Source of the DNA: Mycobacteriales bacterium
Lineage (GTDB): Bacteria; Actinomycetota; Actinomycetes; Mycobacteriales; CADCTP01
Direction: 5' to 3'
DNA: 64,000 nt
Assembly (NCBI GenBank): GCA_035995165.1
Contig: DASYKU010000065.1
Span: 1,633 to 65,632 of the forward strand
Part shown: piece by piece, positions 43,877-62,800 of the stretch
Layout: every line of letters starts with the position of its first letter
How positions within the stretch are numbered: the first letter of the stretch is position 1
Position numbers and translations under genes: made by a program
Notes under the pieces: model-generated
The model's input: the letters and a program-made list of their open reading frames with translations, nothing else
The model's database searches: none
Told to the model about the DNA's origin: nothing

Positions 43877-44824
43877 TCAGGCCCGGACGGTCTCGGGGAT
43901 CGGCGCGGCGTCGGCCATCGCGACCGCCACCTTCCGGGGTCCCGTGTACGGCTCGCGGCCGTGCGCGGTGAGCATGTTGTCGACGACGACGACGTCGTCC
44001 GGGTCGTAGTCGAACCGGGTGGACGCCGAGCGGTACGCCGCCCGCAGGTGCTCGGCGACCTCGTCGCCGATCCGGCCGCCGTCGCCGTAGTAGCTGCTCG
44101 CCGGCAGGGCGGCCTCCCCGTACATCTCCAGCAGGCCCTGCCGGGTCTCGGTCGGCAGGGTGGAGGGGTGGAAGACCGTGGCGTGGTTGAACCACACCTC
44201 CTCCCCCGTGACCGGGTGCCGGTGGATCGCGTCCCGGACGGCCGTGGTCCGCAGCACGTCGCGCTCCAGCCACTCGGCCACGATCCCCTGCCGGCGGCAG
44301 TAGTCCGCCACCTCGCCGCGGTCCTCGGTGCCGAAGACCTCCTGCCAGCGCAGGCCGAGCTCGGGGTGGAAGGTACGGACGACCGACCAGCGCCGCTGCC
44401 GGAACTCCTCGCGGACGTCCGGATCGATGGCGCGCAGCACGGCCCGGGTGTCGGCCAGCGGGGTGGCGCCCCCGGTGGCCGGCCTCCGTACGCACCAGAA
44501 CCACACGTGCGCCGGCCAGCTGCGCTGGTAGGAGTTCTCGTTGTGCAGGAAGATCTCCTGTTCCGCCGGGTACTCGGTGGAGGTGTAGACCCGGCCGCTG
44601 ATCTCGCTGCGCGGTGAGGACCGCTCGGAGTAGGCCAGCGGCTCGCCGGACAAGGCCCGGACCGCGGCGGCGAAGCCGTCCACACCGCCCACGTCGCCGC
44701 CCCGGAACAGCAACGCGCCGTGCTCGAGCAGTTCCGCCCGCAGCCGCGCGCGCCCGGCTCCGGCCAGCTGTGCGAGTGCCCGCCCGTGCGCGGGGACGAG
44801 GAGGACGAGGGAGGTGTCGATCAT
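43877..44824 (-). CDS. TauD/TfdA-family Fe(II)/2-oxoglutarate dioxygenase (SyrP/AsnO-like amino-acid beta-hydroxylase candidate)
   Basis: 315 aa. The facial triad is HNE (His codon 44543-44545, Glu codon 44537-44539) plus a distal His in NMLTAHGREPY. It is the last gene of the NRPS operon, with an ATGA overlap to the TEII gene. Confidence 0.85.
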   Translation of the reverse strand: MIDTSLVLLVPAHGRALAQLAGAGRARLRAELLEHGALLFRGGDVGGVDGFAAAVRALSGEPLAYSERSSPRSEISGRVYTSTEYPAEQEIFLHNENSYQRSWPAHVWFWCVRRPATGGATPLADTRAVLRAIDPDVREEFRQRRWSVVRTFHPELGLRWQEVFGTEDRGEVADYCRRQGIVAEWLERDVLRTTAVRDAIHRHPVTGEEVWFNHATVFHPSTLPTETRQGLLEMYGEAALPASSYYGDGGRIGDEVAEHLRAAYRSASTRFDYDPDDVVVVDNMLTAHGREPYTGPRKVAVAMADAAPIPETVRA

Positions 44825-45606
44825 GACCGCGGACCTTTCCGGAGTTGGTCGGCGAGCAGCTCGGGGAACCGGTCGCCGGTGAACGGATGGAAGTGCCCGC
44901 CGGGCAGCATCCGGAGGGTGAGTCCCCGGGCGGCATACTCGGACCAGGGCTCCAGGACGGCGCGCGGCACGGCCTGGTCCTCGGTCCCACCGAGGACCAG
45001 CAGCGGAGCCCGCACCGGCGGGCGATCCAAGGGCCGGTAGGAGTCCATCAGCGCCATGTCGCCCCGCAGAGCGGGCAGGAACGCCGCCAGCAGCTCGGGC
45101 TGGTCGGCCAGGGTGTCCGGGATCCCGCCGTACGTCTCGTGCACCGTCCGCACGAACTCCGCGTCAGAGAGTCCCTCCAGCGCGGTACGCCCGTGGTCGA
45201 CCAGGTGCGGGGCCGAGGACGACGACACGATCAGCATGCTCGGCACGAGCCGGTAGCGGCGCCACAGCTCGCCCGCCAGCTCGTAGCCGACGATGCCGCC
45301 CATGCTGTGGCCGAGCAGCGCGAACGGGACGTCCAGGAACGGCAGCAGCGCCGAGGCCAGCGCGTCGACGAGCTCGTCCATCCTCGTCATCGGCGGCTCC
45401 CCGAGCCGGTTCTCCCGGCCGGGCGACTGGACCGGGCAGACGTCGACGGCCGGGGCCAGCGGGTCGATCCACCCGGCGAAGGCCGACGCGCCGCCGCCGA
45501 CGTGCGGCAGGCAGAACAGCCGCAGGTCGCTCCCGCCGGTGCCCAGCCCGTACGGCAGCCAGCGGCGGTAGCGCTCGCGCCTCGCGAGCACCGCCGTCGC
45601 GCTCAC
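44821..45606 (-). CDS. Type II (editing) thioesterase
   Basis: I trimmed track ORF 44821..45867 to the GTG at 45604-45606. It has [12 protein letters not shown], the nucleophile motif GHSMGG, and the C-terminal PGGHFH. There is a GTGA overlap with the megasynthase stop. Confidence 0.88.
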
Positions 45607-48600
45607 CGCCCCTCCCCCGCGGGTAGGACGATCTCGCGCCGGGCGGCGACGCCGATCGGCTCCGGCCGGGGCCCGTCCACCGCCCGGTCGAGCTCGGCCG
45701 CCATCGCCGCCACCGTGGGCTCCTCGAAGACCAGGCTGAGCGGCAGCGCCGCGCCGAAGTCCTCGTTCACCCGGGCGATGAGGCGAGTCGCGACCAGCGA
45801 GTGACCGCCGAGCCGGAAGAAGTTGTCGTGCACCCCGACCTCGGACAGTCCGAGCACCTCCATCCACAGGCGACCGAGCCGCTGCTCGGTCTCGGTGCGG
45901 GCCCGGACCGCCTCCGGCCCGACCGGCAGCTCGCCCTCCACAGTGGACATCAGCGCCTGCCGGTCCAGCTTGCCGCTGGGCCGGCGCGGCAGCCGGTCCA
46001 GCAGCACGAACCGGGACGGCACCATCGGCGCCGGCAGCGCCGCCCGCAGCCCTTCGGCGAGGATCACCGGCTCCAGTCCGGACCGGTCGGCCGCGTCCGC
46101 GGCCGCCACGAAGGCGGTCAGCTGCGGGTCGCCGGCCACGTCCCGTACCAGGACGGCGGCGTCCCCGACGCCGGGCAGCGCCCGGACGGCCGCCTCCACC
46201 TCGCCGAGTTCGATCCGGTAGCCGCGGATCTTCACCTGGCCGTCGGAGCGGCCGACGTGCTCCAGCGTGCCGTCCGGCAGCCAGCGGGCGAGGTCGCCGG
46301 TGCGGTAGAGCCGCTCCCCCGGCCGGCCGCCGTGCGGTCGCGGGACGAAGCTGGCGGCGGTCCGGCCGGGGCGGCGCCAGTAGCCGCGGGCGAGCCCCGG
46401 ACCGGCGATGTGCACCTCGCCCGGCACGCCGGCGGGCACCGGTTCGAGGGCGTCGTCGAGGACGAAGACCTCGGTGTCCGCGACCGGCCGGCCGATCGGG
46501 GCGCGGTCCCGCCGTCCGGGCTCAGCGGGCCAGAAGGTGGCGGTGATGGTCGTCTCGGTCGGCCCGTACATGTTGTGCAGCCGGGCTCCGGGCAGCACCG
46601 CCGCGCACCGGTCCAGCAGCCCTGGCGGCAAGGTCTCCCCACCGCAGCAGATCGTCCGGACCGTGCCCCGGCACTCCCGCAGCGCCGGCTCCTCGAGGAG
46701 CACCGCGAGCATCGACGGCACCACCTTGAGGATCGGGCAGCGGTGCCGGACCAGCAGCCGCGCCAGGTACTCGGGGTCGTGCTGCCGTCCCGGTTCGGAC
46801 AGGACCAGCTCGGCCCCGTTCGACAGCGGGGCGAAGATCTCCCATACCGAGGCGTCGAAGCAGTACGAGAAGTTCTGCAGCACGCCGTCGCCGGGGCCGA
46901 CCGGCCACTGGGACTGCTGCCAGGCCAGGCGCCGGCCGGCCGCCGCGTGGCTGATCACCACGCCCTTCGGGACTCCGGTGGAACCGGAGGTGTAGATCAG
47001 GTAGCAGGGATTGCCCGGATCCACCCGCCCGGGCACGGGCGCGGCCGGCTGCGCGCCGACGGCCTCGCGGGCCGCGTCGAGCGCGAGCACCGGCCCGTCG
47101 AACGCGGCTTCCCACCGGCTCGTGGTGACCACCACCGGGCCGGCGACGTCGGCGCCCAGCGCGCGCAGCCGCTGGGGTGGGCTGTCGGGGTCGAGCGGCA
47201 CGTACGCGCCGCCGGCCTTCAGCACGCCGAGGATCGCGACGACCATGTCCACCGACCGGTCCAGGCAGATCGGCACCAGGGTCTCCGGTCCGACCCCGAG
47301 GCCGCGCAGGTGGTGACCGAGCCGGTTGGCGCGCTCGTCGAGGTCCCGGAAGCCCACCGCCTCGGCGCCGATCCGGACCGCGACCGCGTCCGGCGAGCGG
47401 CGGGCCGTGGCCTCGAAGGCCGAGTGCAGCAGGGTGTCCTGGGCCGGACCGGCCGGGCCCGCCGCCCAGTCGGTGAGCAGCCGCCGCCGGTCGGCGGCCG
47501 GCAGCGACGGCAGCGCCGCGAGGGGACGGTCGAGGTCGTCCGCGGCGGCCTCCAGCACGGCCAGCCACTGCCCGGTCAGCCGGTCGATCGTGGGCCGGTC
47601 GTACAGGTCGGTGTTGTACTGGACGAGCGCGGACAGCCCACCGCCGGCAGGCAGCACGTCGAGCAGCAGGTCGAACTTGACCGTGTCGCTCGGCACGTCG
47701 CCCACGCTCAGCGCCAGCCCGGGCAGCCGCACCGGGTCCACCGGCACGCCGATGTACTGGAACATCACCTGGAAGAACGGGCCGCGGGCCGGATCCCGGT
47801 CCGGGGCGAGCACCTCGACCAGCTTGTCGAAGGGCACCTCCTGGTGGGCGTAGGCGCCCAGGCAGGTGTCGCGGACCCGGGCCACCGCCTCCCGCAGCGT
47901 CGGCGCGCCGGACAGGTCGGTCCGCAGCACCAGCGTGTTGATGAACGGCCCCACCAGCGACCTCGTTTCGGGGCGGGACCGGTTCGCGACCGCGCTGCCG
48001 ATCGCGACGTCGTCCTGGCCCGCGGCGCGGGCGAGCGTGACGGTGAAGGCGGCCAGCAGCAGCATGTAGAGGGTCACGCCCTCGGCCCGGGCCACGGCCC
48101 GGAGCGAGTCGGTGAGACCGGGGTCCACCCGCAGCTCGGTCCGGGCGCCGGCGGAGGACTGCCGCTCGCCCCGCGGCCGGTCCGTCGGCAGCGCCAGGAC
48201 GGGCGTCCCGGCCAGCCGATCCCGCCAGTACGCCAGCTGGCCGTCGAGCCAGCTCGAGTTCAGCTTCCGCTGCTCCCAGGCGGCGACATCGGCGAACTGG
48301 ACCTCCGGCTCCCCGAGCGACGACGGACGCCGCTCGACCGCGGCCGAGTACTCCTCCTGGAACTCGCTGACCAGCAGGCCCATCGACCAGTGGTCGGCCG
48401 CGACATGGTGCACGGTCAGCAGCAGGCGGTGCTCCCGCTCGCCGAGGCGCAGCAGCGTCACCCGCAGCGGCGGGCCGGCGGCCAGGTCGAAGGCCAGGTG
48501 GGCGTGCTCGGTCGCCAGCCGGTCGGCGCCGCCCGGGTCCACAATGGACGATCCGGACAGGTCGACGAGGTCGAGCCGGAGCGGCGCCGGCCGGTCGACG

Positions 48601-51600
48601 ACGACGGTGGGCTCGCCGCCGGTCGCCCGGAAGCGGGACCGCAACGTCTCGTGCCGGGCGACGATCCGGGCCAGCGCCCGCCGGACCGCGCCGAGGTCCA
48701 GCCGTCCGGTCAGGTCCATCCGGCAGGACAGGTTGTAGTCGTGGGAGCCGGGCCGCAGCTGATCGAGGAACCAGAAGCGGCGCTGGGTGGACGACAGCGG
48801 CAGCGCGACGCTCCCGTCCCGCGGCAGCACGGGGATCGGAGCCGAGTGGTCACCGGCGGGCTCCGCGGCGCCGATCGCGGGCGGGGTGCCGCGGTCGAGG
48901 AGGCCGGCCGCGTCCAGTTCGGCCATGGTCGCGGTCACCGCGTCGACCACCCGGTCCACGTCGGCCTCGGTGTGCGCGAGGGACAGGAAGCAGTTGCGGC
49001 CCTCCCAGACGTACACGCCGTGCAGCAGGAGCAGGGCGTAGAAGAGCTCGGTGACCTCGGACTGGGGCGCTTCCCCGAGAAGCCGGAACCGGAACAGCGA
49101 CCCGAACCGGACCACCCGCAGCGGCAGCCCGCCGGCCGTGACGACGGCGTTGAGCCTGTCCACCAGCCGTTCGGTCCGCCGGTTCAGCTCCTCCTGCAGC
49201 ACGCCGCCGCCGTCCCGCAGCCGCCGCAGCACCGCCCGGCTGGCCGCCATCGCCAGCGGGTGCTTGCAGAAGGTGCCGGTGAAGAACGTCCGCCGCGCCG
49301 AGGGCAGCTCGCCACCGGCGAAGCTCCAGGCGCCGCCGTCGATGCCGTCCAGCCAGCGGGCGTCGCCCGCGACGATCCCGATCGGGAGCCCGCCGCCCGC
49401 GACCTTCCCGTACACGCTGATGTCGGCCCGGATGCCGAAGATGCCCTGGGCGCCGGCCGGATGGACGCGGAAGCCGGTGATGACCTCGTCGAAGATCAGC
49501 GGGATCCCGGCCCGCTCGGTGAGCGCCCGCAGCCGCCGCAGGAAGTCCACCGGCTGCAGCTCCGGCCGGCGGCTCTGCACCGGTTCCACCAGCACCGCGG
49601 CCAGCTCCCCGGCGTGCTCCTCGAGCGCGCGCAGCGCGGCCTCCCCGCCGTACCGCAGCACGAGCGTGTCGGCACTGATCGAGGCCGGCAGCCCGGGCGA
49701 CATCGGCGCCGCTGCGCCGGTGATCTGCGGGTCGGCCGGCCGGGACAGGATCGGGTCGGCCGAGCCGTGGTACGACCCGGCGAACAGCGCCACCCGGCTG
49801 CGGCCGGTCGCCGCCCGGGCCAGCCGGACGGCGAGCATCACCGCCTCCGAGCCGGTGTTGCAGAAGGAGACCCGCTCGTTGCCGGTGAGCTCGCGGACCA
49901 GGTCCGCCACCTCCGCCGCCAGCGGCGTCTGCGGTCCCAGTTGCATGCCGGCGTCGAGCTGGGCCCGGACGGCGTCGGTGACGAACGGCTCGTCGTGGCC
50001 GAAGAAGTTGACGCCGAAGCCCATCGTCAGGTCGACATACTCGTTGCCGTCGAGGTCCCAGATCCGGGACCCGACCGAGCGGCTGACGGTCAGCGGGTAG
50101 CGGATGTCCTTGAGGTCGAGGTGGCCGGTCAGCACGTGCCGGATGTCGGCGTGGCCGGGTCGTTCGCTGTCCGCGTGCCGGCGCGAGAGTTGGGTCCGCC
50201 CGGTGTAGCGGCGGACGACGTCGGCCAGGAACGTCTGCTGGTCCGGGCTCAGTGCGCTGCGCCGGTCCGGAGGCGCCGCGCTGAACGGCACATAGACGTC
50301 CGGCGGGGACGCGGGTGCGGCGGCCGGCGGCGGGGCGGGGATAGCGGCGGCGGGCGGGCGGGTTCCGGTCAGCAGCTCGTACGCCTGGGTCATCACCTGG
50401 GCGTGGACGGCCAGGAACCGGGCGGCCGGGTCGGCATCCACCGCGGGACCGGGAGCCACCGGACCGGGAGCCACCGGACCGGGAGTCGCCGGCCGGGAGG
50501 GCAACGTCCGGTGGGCGACCTGCCGGGTCAGGAAGTCGGTCAGCCGCCGCAGCGTGTTGGTCTCCTCGAACAGCTGGGCCACCGGGATCTCCACCCCGAA
50601 GCGCTCCTGGATCGTCTGCAGCGCCTGGATCAGCACGACGGAGTCGGCGCCGAGCCGGAGGAAGGACTCGTCCGGGTCGAGGTCGGCCTGGTCCATCTCG
50701 AGGAACTCGGCGAGCGTCGCGCGGACCACCGCGAGCACCTCGGCCCGGTCGGCGACCGGGATGGCGGCCGGTTCCGTGGCGGTGGTCTGTGCCGGTGCGG
50801 TCACGGGAAGCACCTCCGGTGCGGCGGCGGGCGGGCGGCCGGGCTCGGCGAACCAGTGCCGCGTGCGCTCGAACGGGTAGCCGGGCAGCGTCACCCGGCG
50901 GTACGGGTAGCCGGCGTCGACGCCGGCCCAGTCGACCGGGTACCCACGTACGTGCAGGCGGGCCAGGGAGTCGGCGAGCGTCGTCCAGTCGTCGCCCCGG
51001 CCGCGCAGCGACGGCAGCCAGTCGGCGCCGGGTCGGTCCCGGCCGCCGAGCGCGGTCAGCGTCGGGCGGGGCCCGATCTCCAGGTATCGCCGGATTCCTC
51101 GTTCCGCCAGGCGGTCGAGGCCGGCGGCGAAGCGGACCGGCTCGCACAGCTGCCGCGGCCAGAAGGCCGCGTCCAGCGGCAGCTCCGGGCCGACGAAGGC
51201 ACTGTCCACATCGGACACGAGCGGAACCCGCGGCCGGGCGTGCGGCAGCGTCGCCGCCAGCTCCGCGAGGTCCGCCTCGACCGGCGCCATGAGCGGCGAG
51301 TGGAAGGCGTGCGCGACCGGGAGCGGCCGGATCGCGTGCCCGTCCCGGCTCAGCACCGCCGTCACCGCGGCCAGCCCGCTCAGCGGCCCGGACAGCACGG
51401 TGTTCGCGGGGCCGTTGACGGCACCGACGACGACGTCCGGCGGGGACCCCGCGGTCGCGAGCGCCGCCCGGACGGTCGCCTCGTCGGTGAGCACGGCCGT
51501 CATGCCGCCGCCCGCGGGCAGTGCCTGCATCAGCCGGCCCCGGTGGGCGGCCAGCCGCAGGGCGTCGGCGTCGTCGAGCACCCCGGTCACCGCCGCGGCG

Positions 51601-53747
51601 GTGATCTGGCCGAGGCTGTGGCCGAGCGCGGCGTCGGGCCGGATTCCCCAGCCGGACCACAGCCGGGCCAGGGCGATGCCGAACGCGACCAGGGCGGGCT
51701 GCGCGTACTCGGTGCGGGACAGCAGCTCCTCATCGCCCCGGGCCGGAAACAGGATCGTCTGCAGTGGACGGTCGAGCACGCCGTCCAGCAGATCGGCGCA
51801 CCGCATCAGCTCGTCCCGGAAGACGGCGTTGGTCACGTACAGCTGCCGTCCCATGTGGACGTGCTGGCTACCCTGGCCGGGGAAGAGGAACGCGAGCGGC
51901 TCGGGGCCGCCGGGCCGCGCTGTCCCGCGGTGGACCGACCGGGACGGCCGCCCGGCGGCCAGCTCCCGCAGTCCTTGCACGAGCGCGGGCCGGTCGGTGC
52001 CGACGACCACCGCCCGGCGGGACAGCCGGCCGCGGCCCACGGCGGCGGTGTGGCAGACGTCGTCGGTCCGGTCCGCGGCGGATCCCAGGTGGCCGGCGTA
52101 CCGGCCGGCGAGGGCGGCGAGGGCGTCCTCGGTGCGGGCGCTCAGTGGCAGCACGTGCACCGGCCGGGCGTCCTCGATCTCCGCCTCGGCGGCCGGCTCG
52201 GGCGCCTCGCCGAGGACCACGTGGGCGTTGGTGCCGCCGAAGCCGAACGAGCTCACCCCGGCGACCCGCGGGACGGGGCCGCGCGGCCACGCCGACAGCG
52301 TCGTACCCACCTCGACCGGGCCGGCGGTCACGATGGCGGGATTGATCTCCCGCAGGTGCAGGTGCGGCGGCAGCTCGCCGGCAGCCAGCGCGAGCACGAC
52401 CTTGATCAGCCCGGCGATGCCGGCCGCGGACTCGGCGTGCCCGATGTTCGTCTTCACCGAGCCGACCACGCAGGGCTCCCGCCGCGCCGGGTCGTCGAGC
52501 ACCTCCTCCAGGGCGCGGAACTCGATCGGGTCACCGAGGCCGGTGCCGGTGCCGTGCGCCTCGACGTAACCGACCTCCGCCGGTGCGACACCGGCGTCGG
52601 CCAGGGCCCGGCGGAGGACCTGGCGCTGGGCCGTCCCGTTGGGCGCGGTCAGCCCGTTGCTCAGGCCGTCGGAGTTGACCGCCGAGCCGCGCACGACCGC
52701 GAGGACGCGGTCACCGTCGCGGCGGGCGGCCGCCAGCGGCTTGAGGACGACGACGCCGCAGCCCTCGGCCCGGACGTATCCGTCGGCGGCCGCGTCGAAG
52801 GTCTTGCAGCGCCCGTCCGGCGCCAGCATCCCGGCCCTCCGGAACACCCGGGTCACGTGCGGGGTCAGGATCAGGTTGACCCCGCCGGCCAGCGCGAGGG
52901 TCGACTCCCCGCTGCGCAGGCTGGCGCAGGCCAGGTGCACGGCGACCAGTGAGGACGAGCAGGCGGTGTCCACCGCCAGGCTCGGCCCACGCAGGTCGAG
53001 CGTGTACGAGAGGCGGTTGGCGGCGAGGCTGAAGGCCTGTCCGGTGCCGGCGTGCACCTCCGGAGCCGCCGTCCCCGCGGCCGCCTGCACGGCCCGGCCG
53101 TAGTCGGCGTTGCTGATGCCGACGAACACGCCGGCCGGGGTGCCGGCCAGCCGGTCCGGGGCGATCCCGGCGGACTCGAGGGCTTCCCAGGCGACCTCGA
53201 GCAGCAGCCGCTGCTGCGGATCGAGCTGCGCCGCCTCCCGCGGCGAGATCCCGAAGAACCCGGCGTCGAAGCCGTCTATCCGGTCCAGCAGCGAGTGCGG
53301 TCCGCCGAGCGGCTCGGTGCCGGGCCGGGCGGCGCCGTCGCCGGGCGGCACGTGCACGCCGTCGCGCAGCAAGCGCCAGAAGGCCTCGGGACCGTCCGCG
53401 CCGGGGAACCGGCAGCCGATCCCGATCACCGCGACCGGCCCCGGCACCGGGGCCGCCGGATCGCCGGCGTCCGCGGGCTCCGCCCCGCCGGTGAGATGGG
53501 CGGCGAGCCGGGCGATGGTCGGCTTTTCCCACAGCAGGGCGGCGGGGAGATTCTGGCCCAGCAGCCGTTCCAGGTCGCCCGCGAGTACCAGACCGTCGCG
53601 TGAGGACAGTCCGAACGAGCTGAACGGGGCGTGCTCGTCGATCTCGCCGGCGGGGACCGCCAGCTCGGTGGCCAGCCGCGCCCGCAGCCAGCCGGCCAGG
53701 GCCGCCGCGTTCGTGTGGACGTCGCCGGCCGGAGGAGACGCGGTCAT
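45603..53747 (-). CDS. Hybrid PKS-NRPS megasynthase with domain order ACP-KS-AT-ACP-aminotransferase(class III)-C-A-PCP
   Basis: 2714 aa. I located catalytic codons by hand. The N-terminal carrier has FGLSSRD (about 53601-53606). The KS Cys in DTACSSS is at 52959-52961. The AT Ser in GHSLGQ is at 51615-51617, and the HAFH motif is at 51297-51311. The ACP Ser in LGADSV is at 50640-50642. The PLP Lys in [12 protein letters not shown] is at 49404-49406, preceded by [15 protein letters not shown]. The C-domain HHVAADHWS has its His-His at 48405-48410. The A domain has [14 protein letters not shown]...NMYGPTE...PSGKLDR. The PCP Ser in LGGHSL is at 45798-45800. I found no KR, DH, ER or TE domains. 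Confidence 0.92.
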
Positions 53748-53748
53748 C

Positions 53749-55011
53749 TCAGCTCACCCCCGTCAGCTCGGGGTGGCGGCGCCGGGCCGGACTGAGCACG
53801 CCCAGCCCGACCAACGCGATCACCGCGCCCCCGCCGGCCAGGCAGACCGCACGCACCCCGGCGGTCCCGGTTGCCGCGGTCAGGATCAGCGCCCCGAGCG
53901 GCGCCAGCGCCGAGTGCAGGGTGCGGAACACGGCGGTCACCCGGCCCAGCAGGTGGTCCGGAGTGATCTGCTGCCGCAGCGAGACGGACGTGACCGCGGC
54001 GGCGGTCATCCCGAACGAGAAGGTGGCCGCGAGCACGGCCACCAGCGGGACGTCCGTGACCAGGCCGACCGCGGCCATCGCCACTCCGGAGACGAGGTTC
54101 GCGCCGAGCCAGGCGACGCCGAAGCCGAACCTGCGCCGCACCCGCGGGACGAGCAGGGCGCCGGCGATCGAGCCGATCCCGGCGGCCCCCAGCGCGTAGC
54201 CGACCGCGGTGTCGCCCTGCCCCAGGTCCGTCTTCAGGTAGTAGATGAACACGTCGGTGGCGCCGAGCGTGAGGAACGTCAGCGCGGACAGCAGCAGGGT
54301 CAGCGTCCGCAGGATCGGGCTGTTCCAGAGGAAACGCACCCCGGCCAGCAGGTCCCCCCACCCGGACAGCACCGGCTCGGTGCCGGCCCGGGCCTCCTCC
54401 GGCGGGCGCAACCGGATGACGGCCAGACCGGCCGCGGACACCAGGAAGCTCAGCGCGTTCAGCCCGACGGCGCCGGCACCGCCGACCGCCGCGGTCAGCA
54501 CGCCGGCGCAGACCGGGCCGACGACGTAGGAGAGCGCGAACGTCGCCTCGAGCCGGCTGTTCGCGTCCAGCAACTGGTCCCGGCGGACGAGGCTCGGCAG
54601 CACGGTCGCGTACGCGACCTGGAAGAGCATGCCGAAGGCCGCGGCGAGGACGGCCACCACGTAGAGCAGCCAGATCTGCGGCCGGAACAGCCAGCACAGC
54701 GGGATCGCCCCGTACAGCGCGGCCCGGACCAGGTCGGTGAGGATCATCAGCCGGCGCCGGTCGAACCGGTCGACGACGTGCCCGGCCAGGACGCCGGAGA
54801 CGATCCAGCCGGCCGTGCCCGCGGCGGTGAGCACGCCCATCTGGGTCACCGAGCCGGTCGCGGACAGCACCAGCAGCGGCAGCGCCACCAGCGCGAGCGC
54901 GTTGCCCGTCACCGACAGCGCCTGACTGGACCACAGGACCAGGAAGTCGCCGTTGCGGGACAGCGCCGGGCCCGGCCCGGCCACGGTGGCGACCCGGTCG
55001 TCCCCGGTCAC
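53749..55011 (-). CDS. MFS transporter (EntS/MFS_3-like exporter)
   Basis: This is the C-terminal 420 aa of track ORF 53749..58143, starting at the GTG at 55009-55011 ([49 protein letters not shown]...). It has about 12 TM helices. There is a GTGA overlap with the upstream NRPS stop and a 1-nt gap to the megasynthase start. Confidence 0.85.
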
Positions 55012-58000
55012 GAGATCCTCCGCGCGTCGGTCCCGGCGCCGAGCACAGCGCGTACGACGTCGGCGAGCTCGCCGACGTGCGGCGGCCGCAGCAGCCCGAG
55101 ATGGTCGCCCCCGACGACATGGGTGGTCAGCCGCCCGCCGGTCAGGTCGGCCCAGCCCCGGGCCGCCGCGGCCCGCAGCCGCGGGTCCTGCTCCCCCGCC
55201 TGGATCAGGACGACGTCCCCCGGGTACGGCCGGGGCCGCCAGGCCCGGGCCGCGGTCAGGTGATCCTGGACCAGCCCGAGCCGCTCCCGCAACCGGGCCT
55301 GCTCGGCCGCCGGCACCGCCCGCCGCAGGACGGCCAGCACGGCGTCCGCGAGGTCGCCGACCGGGGTGCCGGCCGGCACGTCGAGCTCGTCCGCGTCCGT
55401 CCCGTACGCCCGGGCGACCTCGGCCACGGCATCGCGGAGCAGCAGCGCGCGCTCGTCGTAGCCGGCCGTCTGGTCCGGCAGGTAGCTGTCCAGCAACAGC
55501 AGCGGGCCGGTCTCGGCCCCCCGCTCCCGCAGCTGGCGGGCGAGCTCGTACGCGATCACGCCACCCATCGACCAGCCCGCCAGGCACGGCCGGGGCGGCA
55601 GGTCCGCCAGGTGCGCGGCGGCGATCCCGGCGACCGTCCGCTCGGGCCCCGCCTGCAGCCCGTGCACCGGGCGGTCCCCCAGGGCGGCGGCCAGGCCGGC
55701 ATAGCCGGCCACGTCCCCGCCCGCCGCGGCGACACACACCAGCGGCGTGCCGACGCCGTCCCGGCGCAGCGGGACGAGCCCGCGATCGGGTGCCGGGCGA
55801 CCGCGCACCAGCCGGGCCAGCCGCGCCACCGACGACGGCTCGAGATCGCCGTCCGGGTCGGCGAACAGCGCGGCCAGCGGGATGACCCGGCCGAACTCGT
55901 CCTCGATCGCCGCGACCAGCCGCACGGCGAGCAGCGAGTGGCCGCCGAGGGCGAAGAACCCGTCCTCGGCGCCGACCTCGCCGACGTCGAGGCCGAGCAG
56001 GCCGGCGACCAGCGCGGCGAGCCGGCGCTCGACGTCGTCGCGGGGCGGCGCCGCCGGGCGGGTGCGGACCGGCTCGGCCGGCTCCGGCACCGGCAGCGCC
56101 GCCTCGTCGAGCTTGCCGTTGGCGGTCAGCGGCAGCGCGTCCAGCCAGCCGAACGCGGTCGGCACCAGGTGCTCGGGCAGCCGCGCGCGCAGGAAGTCCC
56201 GCAGGTCGGCGGCAGGCGCCCGGGCGCCGATGAGGTAGCCGGCCAGCCGCTCGGTCCCGCCGTCGCGCCGCAGCACCACCGCGGCGTCGCGGACCGCGGG
56301 GTGCTCCCGCAGCGCCGCCCGCACCTCCGCGGGCTCGACCCGGATGCCGCCGACCTTGATCTGCTCGTCGGCGCGGCCGAGGAACTGCAGCTCGCCGTCC
56401 GGCCGCCGGCAGGCGAGGTCGCCGGTGCGGTAGACCCGCGCCCCGGGCACCGGCGAGTACGGGTCGGGCAGGAAGGACCCGGCGGTCAGCCCGGGCGCGC
56501 CGGCGTAGCCGCGGGTGACCCCCGTGCCGCCGATGTAGAGCTCGCCCGGGACTCCGACCGGGACCGGCCGCATGGCGTCGTCCAGCACGTACGCGCGGGT
56601 GCCGGCGATCGGGCGGCCGATCGGGACGGCACCTGCGCCGGTGCCGTCGATCTCGTGCACCGTGCAGCCGACGACGGTCTCGGTGGGGCCGTACTCGTTG
56701 AAGACCCGGGCGCCGGCGGCCAGCCAGGGCGCGACGGCGTCCGCGGTCAGTTGCTCGCCGCCGACGACCAGCGTGCCGACGGCTCCGGGCAGCTCGCCGG
56801 GGGTCAGCTCGGCACCCAGCAGGGTCAGGTGGGACGGGGTGAGCTTGAGCAGCTCCGCGCGGCCGCGGCGCAGCGCGACGGCCGCCGCCCGGGGGTCGCG
56901 CCGGTCGACCATGGTCACGGTCCCACCCGCGACCAGCGGGGTCAGCAGGCCGGTGACCGTGAGGTCGAAGCCGATCGGCGAGTGGACGATCGACCCGCCC
57001 CGGCCGGCGTCGTACTGCCCGGCGCTCCAGAGCAGGTAGTTCGACAGCGCCGAGTGCGGCACGAGTACGCCCTTGGGCGTGCCGGTGGAGCCGGAGGTGA
57101 ACATCACGTAGGCCAGGCCGTCCGGCGTCACCTCCGGCCGGTCCCCCGGCACGGCTCCGGGCGGGTCCTCGGCGGTCACCGGCACGACCGTGCCGCGCCA
57201 GCCGCCCGGGCCGGCCGGCGCCGCGGTCAGCAGCAGCCGGGAGGACAGCCGCCCGAGCAGGCCGGCCACGCGCCGCTCCGGCAGGCCGGGGTCCAGCGGC
57301 ACGTACGCCCCGCCGGACTTCAGCACGGCGAGCAGGCCGACGACCAGGTCGGCGCCGTGCTCGAGCTGCACGGCGACCGGGATCTCCGGTCCGGCGCCGT
57401 GCCGGCGCAGCCGGTCCGCCAGCAGGCCGGCCCGGCGGTCCAGCTCGGCATAGGTCAGCTCGGCGTCGCCGTCCCGCACCGCGATCGCCCCGGGCGTCCG
57501 CCGGGCCTGCCGCTCGATCAGCTCGTGCGCACAAGCGGGCGGCGCGGCCGGCCTGGTGCGGGCCCGCAGCTCCGCCTGCTCCCGCGGTCCCACCGCGGTC
57601 AGCTCGCCGAGCGGCCGGTCCGGCTGCGCCAGCGCGTCGGCGAGCAGCAGCCGGTGCTGCTCGGCGAGCCGCGCGAGGTAGTCCGCGGACGCGTGGCCGG
57701 GAGCCCCGAGCCAGCTCAGCCGCAGCCGTCCGGGCGTGGCCAGGCAGCACAGCGTGACGTCGCACGGCTCGGTCCGGACGTCGAGTCCGGTGATCGCGAG
57801 CGACCCGCCGGCGGGCAGCGGCCGCGGCCGGTCGGCGAGGAACTCGAACCCGAACGACCAGCCGGCCAGGTCGTCCGCGAGCCCGGCGGCGGACCGCTCC
57901 TCCTTGGCCGCCAGCTCCCGCCGGGTGCTCAGGTCGGCGACCAGGGCCCGCCAGGTCGGGCCGGCGGCGCGCAGCCCGGCCCAGCGGTCGTACGGGCCGG

Positions 58001-58826
58001 CGCCGCCGGTCAGCTCGTCCAGGGTCCGGCCGGGCAGGGCCGTGCCGACGACCGGGCCGGGCGCCCCGCTGATCCGGCCCGCGAGCACCAGCCAGGCGGC
58101 CAGGAGCGGGATCCGGGAGTCGACCTGGTGCTCGGCCGCCCACCCGAGCACGGCGTCGCGCTCGCCGTCGGGCAGGTCGACCGTGCAGCGCTCGTCCGGA
58201 CCGGCCGGGCCGTACCCGCCGGGCAGCGGCCAGCCGATCCGGCCGGAGGTGTCCGCGGATCCGGCGGGGTCAGGGCCGTGCTCCGCGGCGGTCTCGCGCT
58301 GCCAGCCGGCGTACTGGCTGTATTGGACGACGTCCTGCGAGCCGGCCGCGTACGCACCCGGGTCGGCGTACGCGGCGGCCAGGTCGTCCGCGATCACGGC
58401 GCCGGTCGTGGCGTCCGCGACCAGCGGGTGCGCGGTGACGACGAGGGCCGGCCGGCCGGTGCCGCGGACCAGGGTCAGCCGCAGCAGCCGGTCGCCGGCC
58501 GGCGGGATGGCGCGTTCCCCCGCCACGACGGCCGCGAGCTCGCCGCGCCGCCCGGACGGCCCGGTGTCCACTGTGGACCACGGCGGCGCCGGCGCGGCCA
58601 CCGGCAGCTGGACCGCTCCGGCCATCCCGGGCAGCCGGCGGAACACCGATCGCAGGATCTCGTGCCGTTCCAGCACCAGCGCGGCGGCCGCCCGCAGCCG
58701 GTCCTGCCGGACCGGTCCGGCCAGCCCGATCACCGCCTGCACGTGACCCTCGAAGCCACCCCGCCGCAGCGCCCAGGACCGCTCCTGCTGGCCCGAGAGC
58801 TGGTATCCCTCGACGCGAGCCGTCAC
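55008..58826 (-). CDS. NRPS termination module: divergent C-like domain, A, PCP, TE
   Basis: GTG at 58824-58826, inside track ORF 55008..59501. The N-terminal roughly 420 aa are C-like (LSGQQERSWAL), but the HHxxxDG motif is degenerate, reading TAHPLVADA at 58410-58433. The A domain has AYVMFTSGSTGTPKGV, NEYGPTE and ANGKLDE. The PCP Ser (LGGHSL) is at 55935-55937. The TE Ser (GWSMGG) is at 55569-55571, and the C-terminal GGDHLG motif is present. Confidence 0.9.
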   Translation of the reverse strand: MTARVEGYQLSGQQERSWALRRGGFEGHVQAVIGLAGPVRQDRLRAAAALVLERHEILRSVFRRLPGMAGAVQLPVAAPAPPWSTVDTGPSGRRGELAAVVAGERAIPPAGDRLLRLTLVRGTGRPALVVTAHPLVADATTGAVIADDLAAAYADPGAYAAGSQDVVQYSQYAGWQRETAAEHGPDPAGSADTSGRIGWPLPGGYGPAGPDERCTVDLPDGERDAVLGWAAEHQVDSRIPLLAAWLVLAGRISGAPGPVVGTALPGRTLDELTGGAGPYDRWAGLRAAGPTWRALVADLSTRRELAAKEERSAAGLADDLAGWSFGFEFLADRPRPLPAGGSLAITGLDVRTEPCDVTLCCLATPGRLRLSWLGAPGHASADYLARLAEQHRLLLADALAQPDRPLGELTAVGPREQAELRARTRPAAPPACAHELIERQARRTPGAIAVRDGDAELTYAELDRRAGLLADRLRRHGAGPEIPVAVQLEHGADLVVGLLAVLKSGGAYVPLDPGLPERRVAGLLGRLSSRLLLTAAPAGPGGWRGTVVPVTAEDPPGAVPGDRPEVTPDGLAYVMFTSGSTGTPKGVLVPHSALSNYLLWSAGQYDAGRGGSIVHSPIGFDLTVTGLLTPLVAGGTVTMVDRRDPRAAAVALRRGRAELLKLTPSHLTLLGAELTPGELPGAVGTLVVGGEQLTADAVAPWLAAGARVFNEYGPTETVVGCTVHEIDGTGAGAVPIGRPIAGTRAYVLDDAMRPVPVGVPGELYIGGTGVTRGYAGAPGLTAGSFLPDPYSPVPGARVYRTGDLACRRPDGELQFLGRADEQIKVGGIRVEPAEVRAALREHPAVRDAAVVLRRDGGTERLAGYLIGARAPAADLRDFLRARLPEHLVPTAFGWLDALPLTANGKLDEAALPVPEPAEPVRTRPAAPPRDDVERRLAALVAGLLGLDVGEVGAEDGFFALGGHSLLAVRLVAAIEDEFGRVIPLAALFADPDGDLEPSSVARLARLVRGRPAPDRGLVPLRRDGVGTPLVCVAAAGGDVAGYAGLAAALGDRPVHGLQAGPERTVAGIAAAHLADLPPRPCLAGWSMGGVIAYELARQLRERGAETGPLLLLDSYLPDQTAGYDERALLLRDAVAEVARAYGTDADELDVPAGTPVGDLADAVLAVLRRAVPAAEQARLRERLGLVQDHLTAARAWRPRPYPGDVVLIQAGEQDPRLRAAAARGWADLTGGRLTTHVVGGDHLGLLRPPHVGELADVVRAVLGAGTDARRIS

Positions 58827-59866
58827 CGGGCCGTCCCCGCCGTGTCGTCCCGGAACTCGATGACGTCGCCCATCGCGACGAGCAACCGCCGCGGCCCGGT
58901 GAACGGGTCCCGGGCGTGCGCGGTGAGCACGTTGTCCAGCACCATGACGTCGCCCTGCTCCCAGTCCAGACCGACCTCCAGGCGCGCGTACGTCGCCAGG
59001 ACCGCGGCCATCGCGTCGTCCGGGATCGGCGTGCCGTCGCCGAAGGTGCACGTGCGGGGCAGCTCCCCGGCGCCGAGGCTGGCCAGCAGCGACGCTCGGA
59101 CCTGGCCGCCGAGACAGGACGGGTGCCAGTGCTGGGCCTGGTTGAACCAGGACAGCTCGCCGGTGACCGGATGCCGCAGCACCGCGGGCCGTACGCAGCT
59201 CGTCCGCAGGCCCTCGCCGCGCCAGCTGAAGCTCATCCCGTCGGCCGCGCACCGGGCCTCGACCTCGGCGCGGTCGGTGGTCCGGAACACCTCCCGCCAG
59301 TCCAGCCCGAGCCCGGCCCCGTACGTGCGGACGTAGCGGACGCCCTTGCGGACGAACTCCTCGCGCAGCGCCGGATCCAGCTCCGCGTACACGGCCCGGC
59401 TGTCGACCACCGGCGTCCGGCCACCGCTGGTGGCGGGCCGCAGGCAGCAGAACAGGATCCGGGCCGGGCCACGCGCGTTGAAGGAGTTCTCGTTGTGCCA
59501 CAGCAGCTTCTCCTCGGGGGCGAAGAAGACCGGCGTGTAGACGCCGCCGGTCACCGCCGCCCGCGGGTGCTCACCGTTGTCCCGCAGCAACCGGCCGACG
59601 AACAGGCCGGCGAACCGCTCGAACTCCTCCGCCGAGGCGATCCCCGCCCCGCGCAGCAGCAGCGCGCCGCTGCGCCGTAGCTCGGTCCGCAGCCGATCGG
59701 CGTGGGCGCCGGCCCAGGCGGGCAGGTCGACCCCGGCCGCGGCCGGCTCGACGACCGTCGGGAGCGTCGCGCCCTCGGACGGTCGCAGCCGGACCAGATC
59801 GGCACCGGCCAGGCTGACCCGGCGGGCGGAGAACTGCTTCGGTCCGCGCAGGGATTGCTCGGTCAT
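58823..59866 (-). CDS. TauD/TfdA-family Fe(II)/2-oxoglutarate dioxygenase (stand-alone beta-hydroxylase candidate)
   Basis: I trimmed track ORF 58823..60655 to the ATG at 59864-59866 (MTEQSLRGPKQF...). It has the HNE triad (His 59495-59497, Glu 59489-59491) and NVLTAHARDPF. It is wedged between two NRPS genes, with 4-nt overlaps on both sides. Confidence 0.85.
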   Translation of the reverse strand: MTEQSLRGPKQFSARRVSLAGADLVRLRPSEGATLPTVVEPAAAGVDLPAWAGAHADRLRTELRRSGALLLRGAGIASAEEFERFAGLFVGRLLRDNGEHPRAAVTGGVYTPVFFAPEEKLLWHNENSFNARGPARILFCCLRPATSGGRTPVVDSRAVYAELDPALREEFVRKGVRYVRTYGAGLGLDWREVFRTTDRAEVEARCAADGMSFSWRGEGLRTSCVRPAVLRHPVTGELSWFNQAQHWHPSCLGGQVRASLLASLGAGELPRTCTFGDGTPIPDDAMAAVLATYARLEVGLDWEQGDVMVLDNVLTAHARDPFTGPRRLLVAMGDVIEFRDDTAGTAR

Positions 59867-62800
59867 CGGTCTCCTCCGGTATCGACGCGGCCCGGCCGGC
59901 TGTCCGGCTCGCGCGTCAGCTGGTCCAGGCACCGCACGAAGTCGCGGGCCAGCCGCGACACGGTCGCGGCGTCGTACAGGTCGGCGTCGTACTCCCAGAA
60001 GCCGGTCACCGGACCGCCGCCCTGCTCGAGGACGAGGCTGAGATCGAAGCGGGCGGTCCGGACCTCGACCGGGTACGGGCTCAGCTCGATGCCGGCCGTC
60101 CGCACGGTCCCGGCGGCGGGAGCGTCGAGGACCAGCTTCACCGTGAACAGCGGGCTGCGGTCGCGGCCGCGCCGCGGGTTCAGCGCCCGCACCACCTCGT
60201 CGTACGGGACATCCTGGCCGGCGTAGGCGTCGAGGCTGACCCGGCGGACCCGGTGCAGCAGCTCCCGCCAGGTCGGGTCGCCGGACAGGTCGGCACGCAG
60301 CACCAGCTGGTTGACGAAGAAGCCGATCAGCCGCTCGGTGGCCGGCTCGGAGCGGTTCGCGACGTCCGTGCCGACGACCAGGTCCCGCCGGCCGGACCAA
60401 CGGTGCAGGGTGCCGTAGAGGGCGGTGAGCAGCACCATGAAGACGGTGGCGTCCTCGTCCCGGGCCAGGGCGCGTACCGCCCGGACCGTCTCCGGCGGAA
60501 CGTCGACGGGCAGCCGCCGGCCACCGGCGGCGGCCCGCACCGGGCGGGGCCGGTCGGTCGGCAGCGGCGGCAGTTCGGGCACCCCGGCGAGCCGGTGCAC
60601 CCACGCGTCGAGCTGCTCGCCGAGATGGCCGTCCTCGACCAGCCGGCGCTGCCACCGCGCGTAGTCGCCGTACTGCACGGGCAGCTCGGCCAGCGGCGAC
60701 TTCGTGCCGGCGGCGTACGCCTCGTAGAGGGTGGCCAGCTCGCGGAGCAGCACGCCCATCGACCAGCCGTCGAACGCGACGTGATGGATCGTCAGCAGCA
60801 GCACGTGCTCGTCACCGGCCAGGCGCAGCAGGCGCGCCCGCAGGTGCGGGCCGCGGGGCAGGTCGAACGGCCGGTCGTACTCGGCCGCCGCGAGCGACCG
60901 CGCCGCCGCCGGCCGCCGGTCCGGGGCGAGGCCGCCGAGGTCGAGCACCGGCACCGGCACCCCGGCGTACGGCAGCACCCGCTGGGCGGGCACGCCGGCC
61001 GTCGCGTCGAAGACGGTGCGCAGCACATGGTGGCGGCGCACCACCTCGGCCAGCGCTCGCCGCAGCGCGGGCAGGTCGAGGTCGCCGGCGATCCGCCCGT
61101 ACACCGGGACGGAGTAGTCGGTGCCGCCCGGCGCGAGCTGGTCGTGGAACCACAGCCGCTGCTGGGCCGAGGACAGCGGGACCGGACCGTACGGATCCGA
61201 CCGGGACAGGGCCGGTCGCGCCGGCTGCTCCCCGCCGCCGCGTCCGGCCCCGGTCAGCGCGTCCACGCAGGCGGCGAGGCCGGCCAGGTCCCGGTGCTCG
61301 AACGGCGCCCGGACCGGGACGTCCACCCCGAACGCCTCCCGCAGCCGGAAGACGAGCGTGAACACGAGCAGGGAATGACCGCCGAGGGCGAAGAAGTCGT
61401 GCTCCGGGCGGACGTGCTCGCGCCGCAGCAGCTCGCGCCAGATCGCGGCGACCCGCTCCTCGGTGGGCGTGAGCGGGCGCCCCGCCGGTCCGCCGGGCTC
61501 CGCCTCGGACGGACCGAGATCGGCGTCGACGAGACCGGCGAGCGCGGTGCGGTCCAGCTTGCCGCCGGGGGTGCGCGGCAGTCCCGACACGGTGACGAGG
61601 TGGTTCGGGACCATGTGCGCGGGCAGCCGGTCCCGCAGCCGGGCCTCGATCCCGGGCAGCAGGGCCGCGCACGCCCGGCCCCACAAGGGATCGTTGGCGT
61701 ACGGCCGCAGGTCCGTGTCCACAGTGGATGGCCCGGCGGGTTCCAGGCCACCGGCCGGCGCGGTCGCGACGTCCGGGCGGTGCAGCAGGACGTCGACCGC
61801 TCCGTCCGGGTGCCCGGCGAGCCAGCTCGGCTCGGTGACGTAACCGGCGTCCCGGGCGATCGCCGCCACCTCGCCGGAATCGAGGGCCGTCCCGGCGGCG
61901 GACGCGGAGACCACGTCCTCGACCGGGGTCCGGTCGTCCGCGGACCGCAGCGCCGCCCTCGCCGCGAGCGCGGCGGCCAGCCGCGCGTTGCCGACCCGGC
62001 GCAGGACGAGCGCGCCGGGTCCCGCGGCCAGGGCGGCCCGCAGGTCGCCGGCGGCCAGGCCGCGCCCGTCCTGGTCGGGCGGCCCATCGGGCTCGGGCGA
62101 CCGGCCGCCGATGCCGAGCGTGACGTCGTACCGGTAGTCGCCGAGCTCGTTGCGGTACGTGCCGGGCTTCGGCGACACCGTCACCGAGGTGATGCGCGGG
62201 AACCGCCGGCGCAGCCGCGGGAACAGCCGCGGGTCGAGGCACAGCTCCTCCTCGCGCTCCACCGCCCGCCGCACCAGCGCCCGCACCTCGCCCGCGGTCG
62301 GCCGCTCCCCCGCGGCCGCGCGCCGGGCGGCCCGGTGCAGCTCGACCGAGGTGTGGAACAGCTCCAGCAGCGGCAGGCTGCGCAGGTCGCCGAGGAAGAC
62401 GTGCCCGGTGCCCGGGATGGCCCCGACCGCGCGGCTGATAAGGCGGACCAGGTAGTCGACCGACGGGAAGTACTGCGCCACCGAGTTGAGCACGACGGTG
62501 TCGACGGCGTCGCCGCGCCACAGGCTCTTGTGCGCGGGCGCCAGCCGCAGCTCGACCCGGTCGGCCAGGTCGCGATCCCCGGCCAGCTTGGTCGCGCGGA
62601 CGTGCTCCAGCGCGGCGGCGCTGAAGTCGGTGGCGACATAGAGCTCGCACGCCGGCGCGATCCGGGCCAGCACCATGCCGGTGCCGCAGCCGATCTCCAG
62701 GACACGGCGCGGGTGCAGGCGGCGGATCCGTTCGGCCGTGCCGTCCAGCCAGGCCGCCATCTCCGGGGCCGGGATCTCCGCGCCGGTGTAGCTGTCGGTC

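Follow-up and report, generated by a model that had tools for sequence, protein, structure and literature searches.

The interface (I) domains of nonribosomal peptide synthetases (NRPSs) are said to have been described by Reitz et al. (PNAS 2019) together with the Asp and His β-hydroxylases of siderophores, mostly from Proteobacteria, and were reportedly proposed to position the hydroxylase and the carrier-bound residue. Profiles for siderophore hydroxylases and interface domains are carried by antiSMASH 8, which cites Reitz et al. 2019 (PMC12230676), and a hydroxylase gene or domain directly upstream of an Asp module has been presented as the genetic signature of β-hydroxy-Asp (β-OH-Asp) compounds (bioRxiv 10.64898/2026.07.30.741596). 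The subtypes distinguished among the siderophore hydroxylases are IBH_Asp, TBH_Asp, IBH_His and CyanoBH_Asp1/2. In the structure of cyanochelin B, β-OH-Asp occupies the position of CcsL, for which CcsK was assigned by the authors (PMC12628792). The potashchelin assembly line contains fatty acyl-AMP ligase (FAAL)–acyl carrier protein (ACP)–condensation (C)–TauD–C–adenylation (A, for Asp)–peptidyl carrier protein (PCP), and the Asp module of the stand-alone PtcA has no extra C domain (PMC7100376). Hydroxylation on the carrier is also described for HynE of hypeptin, an α-ketoglutarate enzyme that makes 3-hydroxy-Asn (PMC8252469), and for SyrP of syringomycin, as cited in passages of PMC7100376 and PMC8949500. 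Here, we describe a related unit from a 64,000-nucleotide stretch of a metagenome-assembled Mycobacteriales bacterium (contig DASYKU010000065.1 of assembly GCA_035995165.1, positions 1,633 to 65,632; G+C about 75%), hereafter the window, in which a TauD-family hydroxylase (TauD1) lies between two NRPSs (NRPS1 and NRPS2). The NRPS2 and TauD1 proteins are identical to the deposited HEV7655226/7.

In our reading, NRPS1, TauD1 and NRPS2 together probably provide a split termination module of a lipopeptide assembly line, in which a carrier-bound residue, most likely Asn, would be hydroxylated by way of a non-condensing I domain. All three genes lie on the minus strand. The 3′ part of NRPS1 (59863–64000), a gene which extends beyond the window edge, encodes an A domain split by a Methyltransf_12-type methyltransferase (~62374–62721), a carrier (T) domain and a terminal C domain, with Pfam matches to AMP-binding, Methyltransf_12, PP-binding and Condensation (4e-92). 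This terminal C domain (59881–61182) possesses an intact HHVAFDG motif (LLLTIHHVAFDGWSMG), with the two His codons at 60781–60786. TauD1 (58823–59866, 347 amino acids) is a TauD/TfdA-type Fe(II)/α-ketoglutarate dioxygenase (PF02668, 1e-43), whose start is preceded by GGAGGAG, and which overlaps NRPS1 through an ATGA (59863–59866) and NRPS2 through a GTGA (58823–58826). According to Pfam, NRPS2 (55008–58826) consists of a C-like domain, an A domain, a T domain and a thioesterase (TE) domain. The C-like domain (57552–58826), which we regard as interface-like on the basis of its fold, motif loss and position in the tree, bears the degenerate T-A-H-P-L-V-A-D-A (LVVTAHPLVADATTG, 58410–58436) in place of HHxxxDG, and is followed by the A domain (56112–57515), the T domain (55854–56024; GGHSL, PF00550, 9e-14), which is the presumed site of hydroxylation, and the TE domain (55053–55745; GWSMG, PF00975, 3e-19), presumably for chain release. 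This layout agrees with the original prediction, made from the DNA letters, in which NRPS1 ended in a canonical C domain, NRPS2 opened with a C-fold domain of degraded motif, and a TauD-family gene was wedged between the two with a 4-nucleotide overlap on each side.

The Pfam Condensation profile covers only residues 8–181 of the first 425 residues of NRPS2, with 45 bits. An alignment to solved C domains places AHPLVADA opposite HHxxxDG, reading H-P-x-x-x-D-A, showing that a Pro stands in for the catalytic second His. The loss extends to the homologous downstream domains of the related loci, 86 in number, in which this column is never His in any of the 85 members of the I clade described below; the sole exception, L009_1285, is an ordinary C domain which lies beyond that clade. 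The Asp of the motif, on the other hand, is retained in 85 of the 86. An AlphaFold2 model of the domain, built from an alignment of 24 relatives (predicted local distance difference test score 88.2, predicted template modeling score 0.90), has a C fold, and a Foldseek search of the Protein Data Bank (PDB) matched it to the C domain of Txo2 (E-value 8e-28, template modeling (TM) score 0.72) and to those of DhbF, CDA and LgrA (TM ~0.7), with TM scores of 0.63–0.68 to the X domains of glycopeptide synthetases. A profile of the I family likewise scored best against an LCL-type C domain in the PDB (Txo1, 241 bits), compared to 180 bits for the X domain and about 80 bits for epimerization (E) domains. 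The modeled structure is thus that of a complete C domain with its two CAT-like lobes, most likely derived from an ordinary LCL-type domain. The hidden Markov model (HMM) of I-like domains gives it a score of 431 vs. 190–206 for the two canonical C domains of the window. Its relatives were collected by an exhaustive HMMER protein search, the ranking of which was led by giant multi-C NRPSs, and were picked as single-stretch N-terminal matches. The true relatives are 25–38% identical to the window domain and share the motifs (E/Q)G(Y/F)RLSxQQxRLW, RHEILRT and a His-less [LT][PTS][AS]L[CA]AD, with 14 columns of the alignment being invariant. Among the representative proteins, 54 of 58 such domains begin at, or a few residues from, the protein N-terminus.

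The placement of the domain within the C superfamily was analyzed with a neighbor-joining tree of 258 near-full-length C-superfamily domains from the loci studied, in which the reference I domains had been chosen by where they lie in known or siderophore-like clusters rather than taken from a curated set. The 91 domains without the second His form a single clade (bootstrap 86/100), which includes the window domain as well as the domains located behind the fused hydroxylases of cyanochelin B (CcsI), Variovorax and Azospirillum. Outside of this clade are the C domain that ends NRPS1 and that of a hybrid synthetase encoded in the same operon. The tree therefore separates the N-terminal domain of NRPS2 from ordinary C domains, and the alignment shows HHxxxDG to be lost.

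To place the unit in a genomic context, genomes (one per species) were scanned with an alignment of the hydroxylase alone, and the resulting loci were analyzed by HMMER, MAFFT and our own scripts. This yielded 81 non-redundant loci from Actinomycetota, Acidobacteriota, Cyanobacteriota and Chloroflexota, among them Streptomyces, Kitasatospora, Amycolatopsis, Kutzneria, Actinophytocola, Dactylosporangium, many Acidobacteriota, Nostocales and other cyanobacteria, and Ktedonobacteria. In 80 of the 81, the first C-type domain downstream of TauD is a His-less domain; since the loci were recovered through the hydroxylase only, this arrangement is not due to chance. In 39 loci, an upstream C domain with an intact HHxxxD[GA] carries TauD fused to its C-terminus, while TauD is preceded by a separate intact C domain ending just upstream in 26 and has no upstream C domain in the remaining 16. 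The upstream module itself differs from locus to locus, being Gly-, Gln-, Thr- or Asn-like, a polyketide synthase (PKS) with a stand-alone C domain, or missing entirely. Among actinomycetes, the nearest relatives are small systems with the layout A-T / C-A(methyltransferase)-T-C-TauD / I-A-T-TE, as exemplified by L019 (Streptomyces rishiriensis NBRC 13407), and the C-A(methyltransferase)-T-C-TauD protein is present in the Streptomyces, Kitasatospora and Kutzneria relatives. TauD / I-A-T-TE units without an upstream C domain occur in L002, L034, L036, L038, L051, L057 and L071 (Dactylosporangium and several Streptomyces), and some units of this type carry the A-domain code DMTKVGEVCK. Four loci of Acidobacteriota (L043, L048, L059 and L087) show the order C / I-A-T-C-TauD / I-A-T, with two I modules and one hydroxylase fused to the end of the first, where a single TauD may serve two modules.

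A simpler explanation of the His-less domain is that it is merely a decayed C domain, retained either to support the A domain structurally or to dock the two NRPSs to one another, while TauD1 finds the T domain or the aminoacyl thioester unaided, in the manner of SyrP. The domain does retain the structural motifs of C domains and, as in 54 of the 58 representative proteins, sits at a protein junction, and a contact between TauD1 and the I domain is so far only predicted. However, the co-occurrence with the hydroxylase in 80 of 81 loci is the same whether TauD is fused or separate, and persists even in loci that lack any upstream C domain, such as L002 and L034–L038, where a relic of docking between proteins would make little sense. 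In addition, the His-less clade is old and conserved, as seen from its retained Asp and 14 invariant columns, which is unlike neutral decay. We thus consider simple decay quite improbable, and the near-absolute co-occurrence leads us to propose that the I domain may recruit the hydroxylase. The original prediction of a non-condensing, C-like interface domain paired with a TauD hydroxylase ahead of an Asx-type A domain is in this respect supported by the fold, the motif loss, the phylogeny and the synteny alike. Its further expectation that stand-alone hydroxylases are the ones that pair with interface domains is correct for the window and for CcsK of cyanochelin B, but does not extend to a general rule, because TauD is fused in about half of the relatives and because Azospirillum shows the reverse. 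There, the domain next to the stand-alone TauD is an HH-containing C domain that is not in the clade, whereas the domain next to the fused TauD is His-less and within it. What counts is the position of the hydroxylase between a terminal C domain and an I domain, and not its being stand-alone.

TauD1 scores 150 bits against PF02668 (cut-off 27), and its metal triad H124/E126/H317, which is invariant among the relatives, lines up with the HxE...H residues of At3g21360. A phmmer search against all PDB chains (E < 1e-3) returned only At3g21360, SqoD and a TauD, and neither AsnO nor VioC was among the matches. Structure 9yut, the nearest among those solved, is that of a sulfoquinovose dioxygenase and was set aside as having no bearing on the function of TauD1. 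Apart from a near-identical metagenomic copy (L001, 97%), the best match in the genome scan is an enzyme of Dactylosporangium (66%), and TauD1 is 46–62% identical to 80-odd enzymes associated with a Glu at position 322 of the downstream A domain (Glu322). These enzymes form a clade of at least 83 members with conserved residues of its own (NGEHPR, ENSFN and HWH). Within this Glu322-associated clade, NGEHPR, PVF, ENSFN, HWH and Cys273 are invariant, and all of them differ in four Asp-associated enzymes. The corresponding sites of TauD1, at residues ~97–100, 112–114, 127–130, 246–248 and 273, adjoin the metal ligands and are, judging from this pattern, candidate determinants of substrate specificity.

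Three observations could suggest that TauD1 acts elsewhere than on the T domain of NRPS2, i.e., on free L-Asn as AsnO does, on an Asn-type residue bound to the final carrier domain of NRPS1, or on the completed peptide. First, the A domain closest to the end of NRPS1 is Asn-type as well. Second, TauD in the fused relatives is attached behind the T and C domains with which the upstream protein ends. Third, a second TauD enzyme in the cluster (TauD2) points to more than one hydroxylation. The fusion of TauD to an NRPS in 39 loci, however, speaks against an enzyme for a free substrate, as does the lack of similarity to AsnO and VioC in the PDB search above, and both of these, together with the precedents of HynE and SyrP, are the reasons why hydroxylation on the carrier is proposed here. 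Throughout the clade, it is the I-A-T downstream of TauD that stays constant, whereas the module upstream varies or is missing, which makes the downstream module the likely target. Similarly, the potashchelin carrier ahead of C-TauD bears a fatty acyl group, so that the target must lie downstream (PMC7100376). Action of TauD1 at any of these other sites therefore appears very unlikely to us.

The identity of the hydroxylated residue was approached through the specificity code of the NRPS2 A domain, which was recovered as DLTKVGEVGK by a MAFFT alignment to GrsA-PheA, identical to the code given in the original prediction. A literature search for this exact code found no occurrence. The related DATKVGEVGK is predicted to specify Asn (PMC3547906), and Asn is likewise the residue ascribed to DLTKIGEVGK (PMC12283262). 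All 72 readable A-domain codes downstream of TauD1-clade hydroxylases take the form DLTK[VI]GEV[GC]K, with Glu322, in contrast to the four Asp modules that were read (CcsI, CcsL, Variovorax and Azospirillum), every one of which has His322 in the form DLTK[VI]GHVGK, CcsI and CcsL being characterized. The code of the A domain that partners the window I domain is thus not of the Asp/His type. The last A domain of NRPS1, the one with the methyltransferase, has the likewise Asn-like DLTKVGEV[A/C], and the penultimate module of the closest actinomycete relatives is also an Asn-type A domain with a methyltransferase.

The same unit could instead act on L-Asp, giving a C-terminal β-OH-Asp whose α-hydroxycarboxylate serves as an iron ligand, and the product would then be a lipopeptide siderophore like the cyanochelins and cupriachelins. 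Indeed, the characterized units of such architecture all make β-OH-Asp, the window code is one residue away from DLTKVGHVGK, and an EntS-like exporter of the MFS_3 type is translationally coupled to NRPS2. Against this stand the uniform Glu322 of the 72 relatives, the His322 of all four Asp modules, and the presence of Glu322 in the published Asn codes. A Glu facing the β-carboxylate of Asp would, moreover, be expected to be unfavorable from what is established on A-domain structures. No TonB-type or FecB-type iron-uptake genes lie beside the cluster within the window. We therefore regard Asp as an unlikely substrate, and the unit is probably not of the siderophore-type β-OH-Asp kind. Taken together, the invariant Glu322, the published Asn codes and the separate hydroxylase clade favor β-hydroxy-Asn (β-OH-Asn) over β-OH-Asp as the predicted carrier-bound product. 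Where the original prediction left the C-terminal residue as either β-OH-Asp or β-OH-Asn, the Asn part is thus retained and the Asp part has become the less favored one.

Based on these observations, the following sequence of events can be proposed for the split module. The A domain of NRPS2 would activate L-Asn and load it onto the T domain of the same protein, after which TauD1, using Fe(II) and α-ketoglutarate, would hydroxylate Cβ of the T-bound residue. The I domain, lacking the catalytic His and hence expected to be non-condensing, would occupy the usual place of a C domain beside the A domain and could function as a docking platform at which TauD1 and the loaded T domain meet the C domain that ends NRPS1. 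This C domain, with its intact motif, would then join the upstream peptide in trans to β-OH-Asn-S-T, the last upstream residue being supplied by the Asn-type A domain of NRPS1 with its embedded methyltransferase, and the TE domain would release the product. The peptide would accordingly be predicted to end in (methyl-)Asn followed by β-OH-Asn.

Several points weigh against this scheme. First, TauD1 falls into a clade of its own and shares only 38–41% identity with its counterparts in the clusters of cyanochelin B, Variovorax and Azospirillum. Second, the recruiting role of interface domains is reportedly a published proposal and not itself a demonstrated fact. Third, the reference I domains of the tree were set by context, so that the class assignment of the window domain leans on context-defined references. 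Fourth, the function of the whole TauD1 clade is predicted from sequence. Fifth, DLTKVGHVGK, which differs from the window code at one position, is on record as a code for Asp and for Asn alike (PMC12283262), and the Asn call consequently leans on residue 322 alone. Finally, because the A domain of NRPS1 is Asn-type too, the window by itself cannot tell which of the two modules is the target.

The remaining genes of the cluster follow NRPS2 in a minus-strand operon at the right end of the window, in the order NRPS1, TauD1, NRPS2, MFS_3 transporter and hybrid PKS-NRPS, with ATGA or GTGA overlaps linking the first four. The transporter gene (53749–55011, minus strand) overlaps NRPS2 through a GTGA at 55008–55011, and the identical gene in L091 carries Pfam MFS_3/MFS_1. 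A 458-residue, Arg-rich open reading frame on the same strand (53744–55120) has no Pfam match and was rejected as a product of the high G+C content that lies out of frame with the actual gene, that of the transporter. The hybrid PKS-NRPS (45603–53747, minus strand; 2714 amino acids) has the Pfam domain order T, ketosynthase (KS), acyltransferase (AT), T, class III aminotransferase, C, A and T. Within the same gene cluster as the TauD1 unit, this protein follows, as far as its domain order tells, the β-amino fatty acid logic of the mycosubtilin/iturin style. The same hybrid (T-KS-AT-T-aminotransferase-C-A-T) stands directly behind TauD + I-A-T in a metagenome-assembled genome of Thermoanaerobaculia (L003, 9751–16426), and its occurrence in both actinobacterial and Thermoanaerobaculia assemblies suggests a gene set common to several phyla. 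A β-amino fatty acid is combined with N-MeIle and 3-OH-Asn in the laxaphycins and scytocyclamides. An assignment of the cyanobacterial relatives to laxaphycin/scytocyclamide clusters was ruled out, as that cluster is without TauD and cupin-8 proteins are its proposed hydroxylases (PMC7524897).

The operon region after the hybrid further encodes a type II thioesterase, TauD2, an M20 peptidase and a zinc alcohol dehydrogenase. TauD2 (43877–44824, minus strand; 315 amino acids) is a TauD-family enzyme that shares 40% identity with TauD1 and falls in a different clade, and an I-like partner domain for it is absent within the window. To the left, a RecD2-type helicase (38243–40120) marks the border of the NRPS cluster next to a plus-strand group (30737–38030) of a family 2 glycosyltransferase, two NosD/β-helix proteins and a UDP-glucose dehydrogenase, which has the look of a polysaccharide locus.

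The combination of an Asn-type A domain with a separate hydroxylase clade over four phyla was not found described in the literature examined. Several antibiotic lipopeptides contain β-OH-Asn, the origin of which has had to be guessed for each cluster in turn. We see about an even chance that TauD1 and its relatives, in at least 80 loci from four phyla, are Asn-specific, I-domain-dependent hydroxylases that make carrier-bound β-OH-Asn in non-siderophore peptides, in which case the interface domain would be a general platform, and Glu322 vs. His322 together with the hydroxylase clade would track the switch between the two residues. If the clade is indeed Asn-specific, the trio of C domain, TauD and His-less C-like domain, in conjunction with a Glu322 A domain, would provide a genome-mining rule for β-OH-Asn, and such clusters would no longer be scored as β-OH-Asp siderophores. 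With the C domain, the hydroxylase and the I-A-T-TE on three separate polypeptides, the version in the window is easy to dissect and suits a direct test of the role of the I domain. Specialists are unlikely to be surprised by the unit; its value lies in offering three separate proteins for clean tests and perhaps a rule for genome mining.

Among the known systems, the cyanochelin B cluster (Leptolyngbya sp. NIES-3755, AP017310.1) offers the closest comparison. CcsJ ends in a C domain with HHLILDG, the TauD CcsK stands alone, and CcsL opens with an I-like domain (HMM score 393, motif LNLPSLCAD; not part of the 258-domain tree) ahead of an Asp A domain. As in the window, an NRPS ending in an HH-intact C domain is followed by a TauD, either stand-alone (CcsK) or fused (CcsFGH), and then by an NRPS with a His-less C-like domain, A and T (CcsL or CcsI), and the compound as isolated carries β-hydroxylated residues from these modules (PMC12628792). 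We note three differences between the two. First, the A-domain codes in cyanochelin B are DLTKIGHVGK, for Asp, whereas that of the window is DLTKVGEVGK. Second, its hydroxylases are 38% identical to TauD1 and belong to another clade, with I domains that are 24–27% identical. Third, cyanochelin B is a cyanobacterial siderophore, whereas the window contains an actinobacterial cluster with a β-amino fatty acid module and a terminal TE domain.

The siderophore interface domains, as reported in secondary citations, resemble the window domain in belonging to the C superfamily, in lacking the catalytic His and in being situated between a TauD hydroxylase and an A domain. They differ in serving Asp or His, and the proteobacterial examples of Variovorax and Azospirillum are distant members of the clade of the window domain. 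SyrP and HynE, likened to TauD1 by description only, are also stand-alone enzymes that perform α-ketoglutarate chemistry on an aminoacyl-S-carrier, namely on Asp or Asn attached to a T domain, but an interface domain is not described for them in the literature examined. AsnO and VioC would share the product β-OH-Asn with TauD1, but use the free amino acid as substrate. The X domain of glycopeptide synthetases is, like the I domain, a dead C fold that recruits tailoring oxygenases, an analogy of principle and not of membership. It follows the last T domain and recruits P450s, whereas the window domain is N-terminal and ahead of an A domain, and no P450 is present among the annotated cluster genes in the window. 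Thus, the pairing of a hydroxylase with an interface domain is a kind already known, of which the window, by its A-domain code, holds a predicted Asn-type member with a hydroxylase clade of its own.

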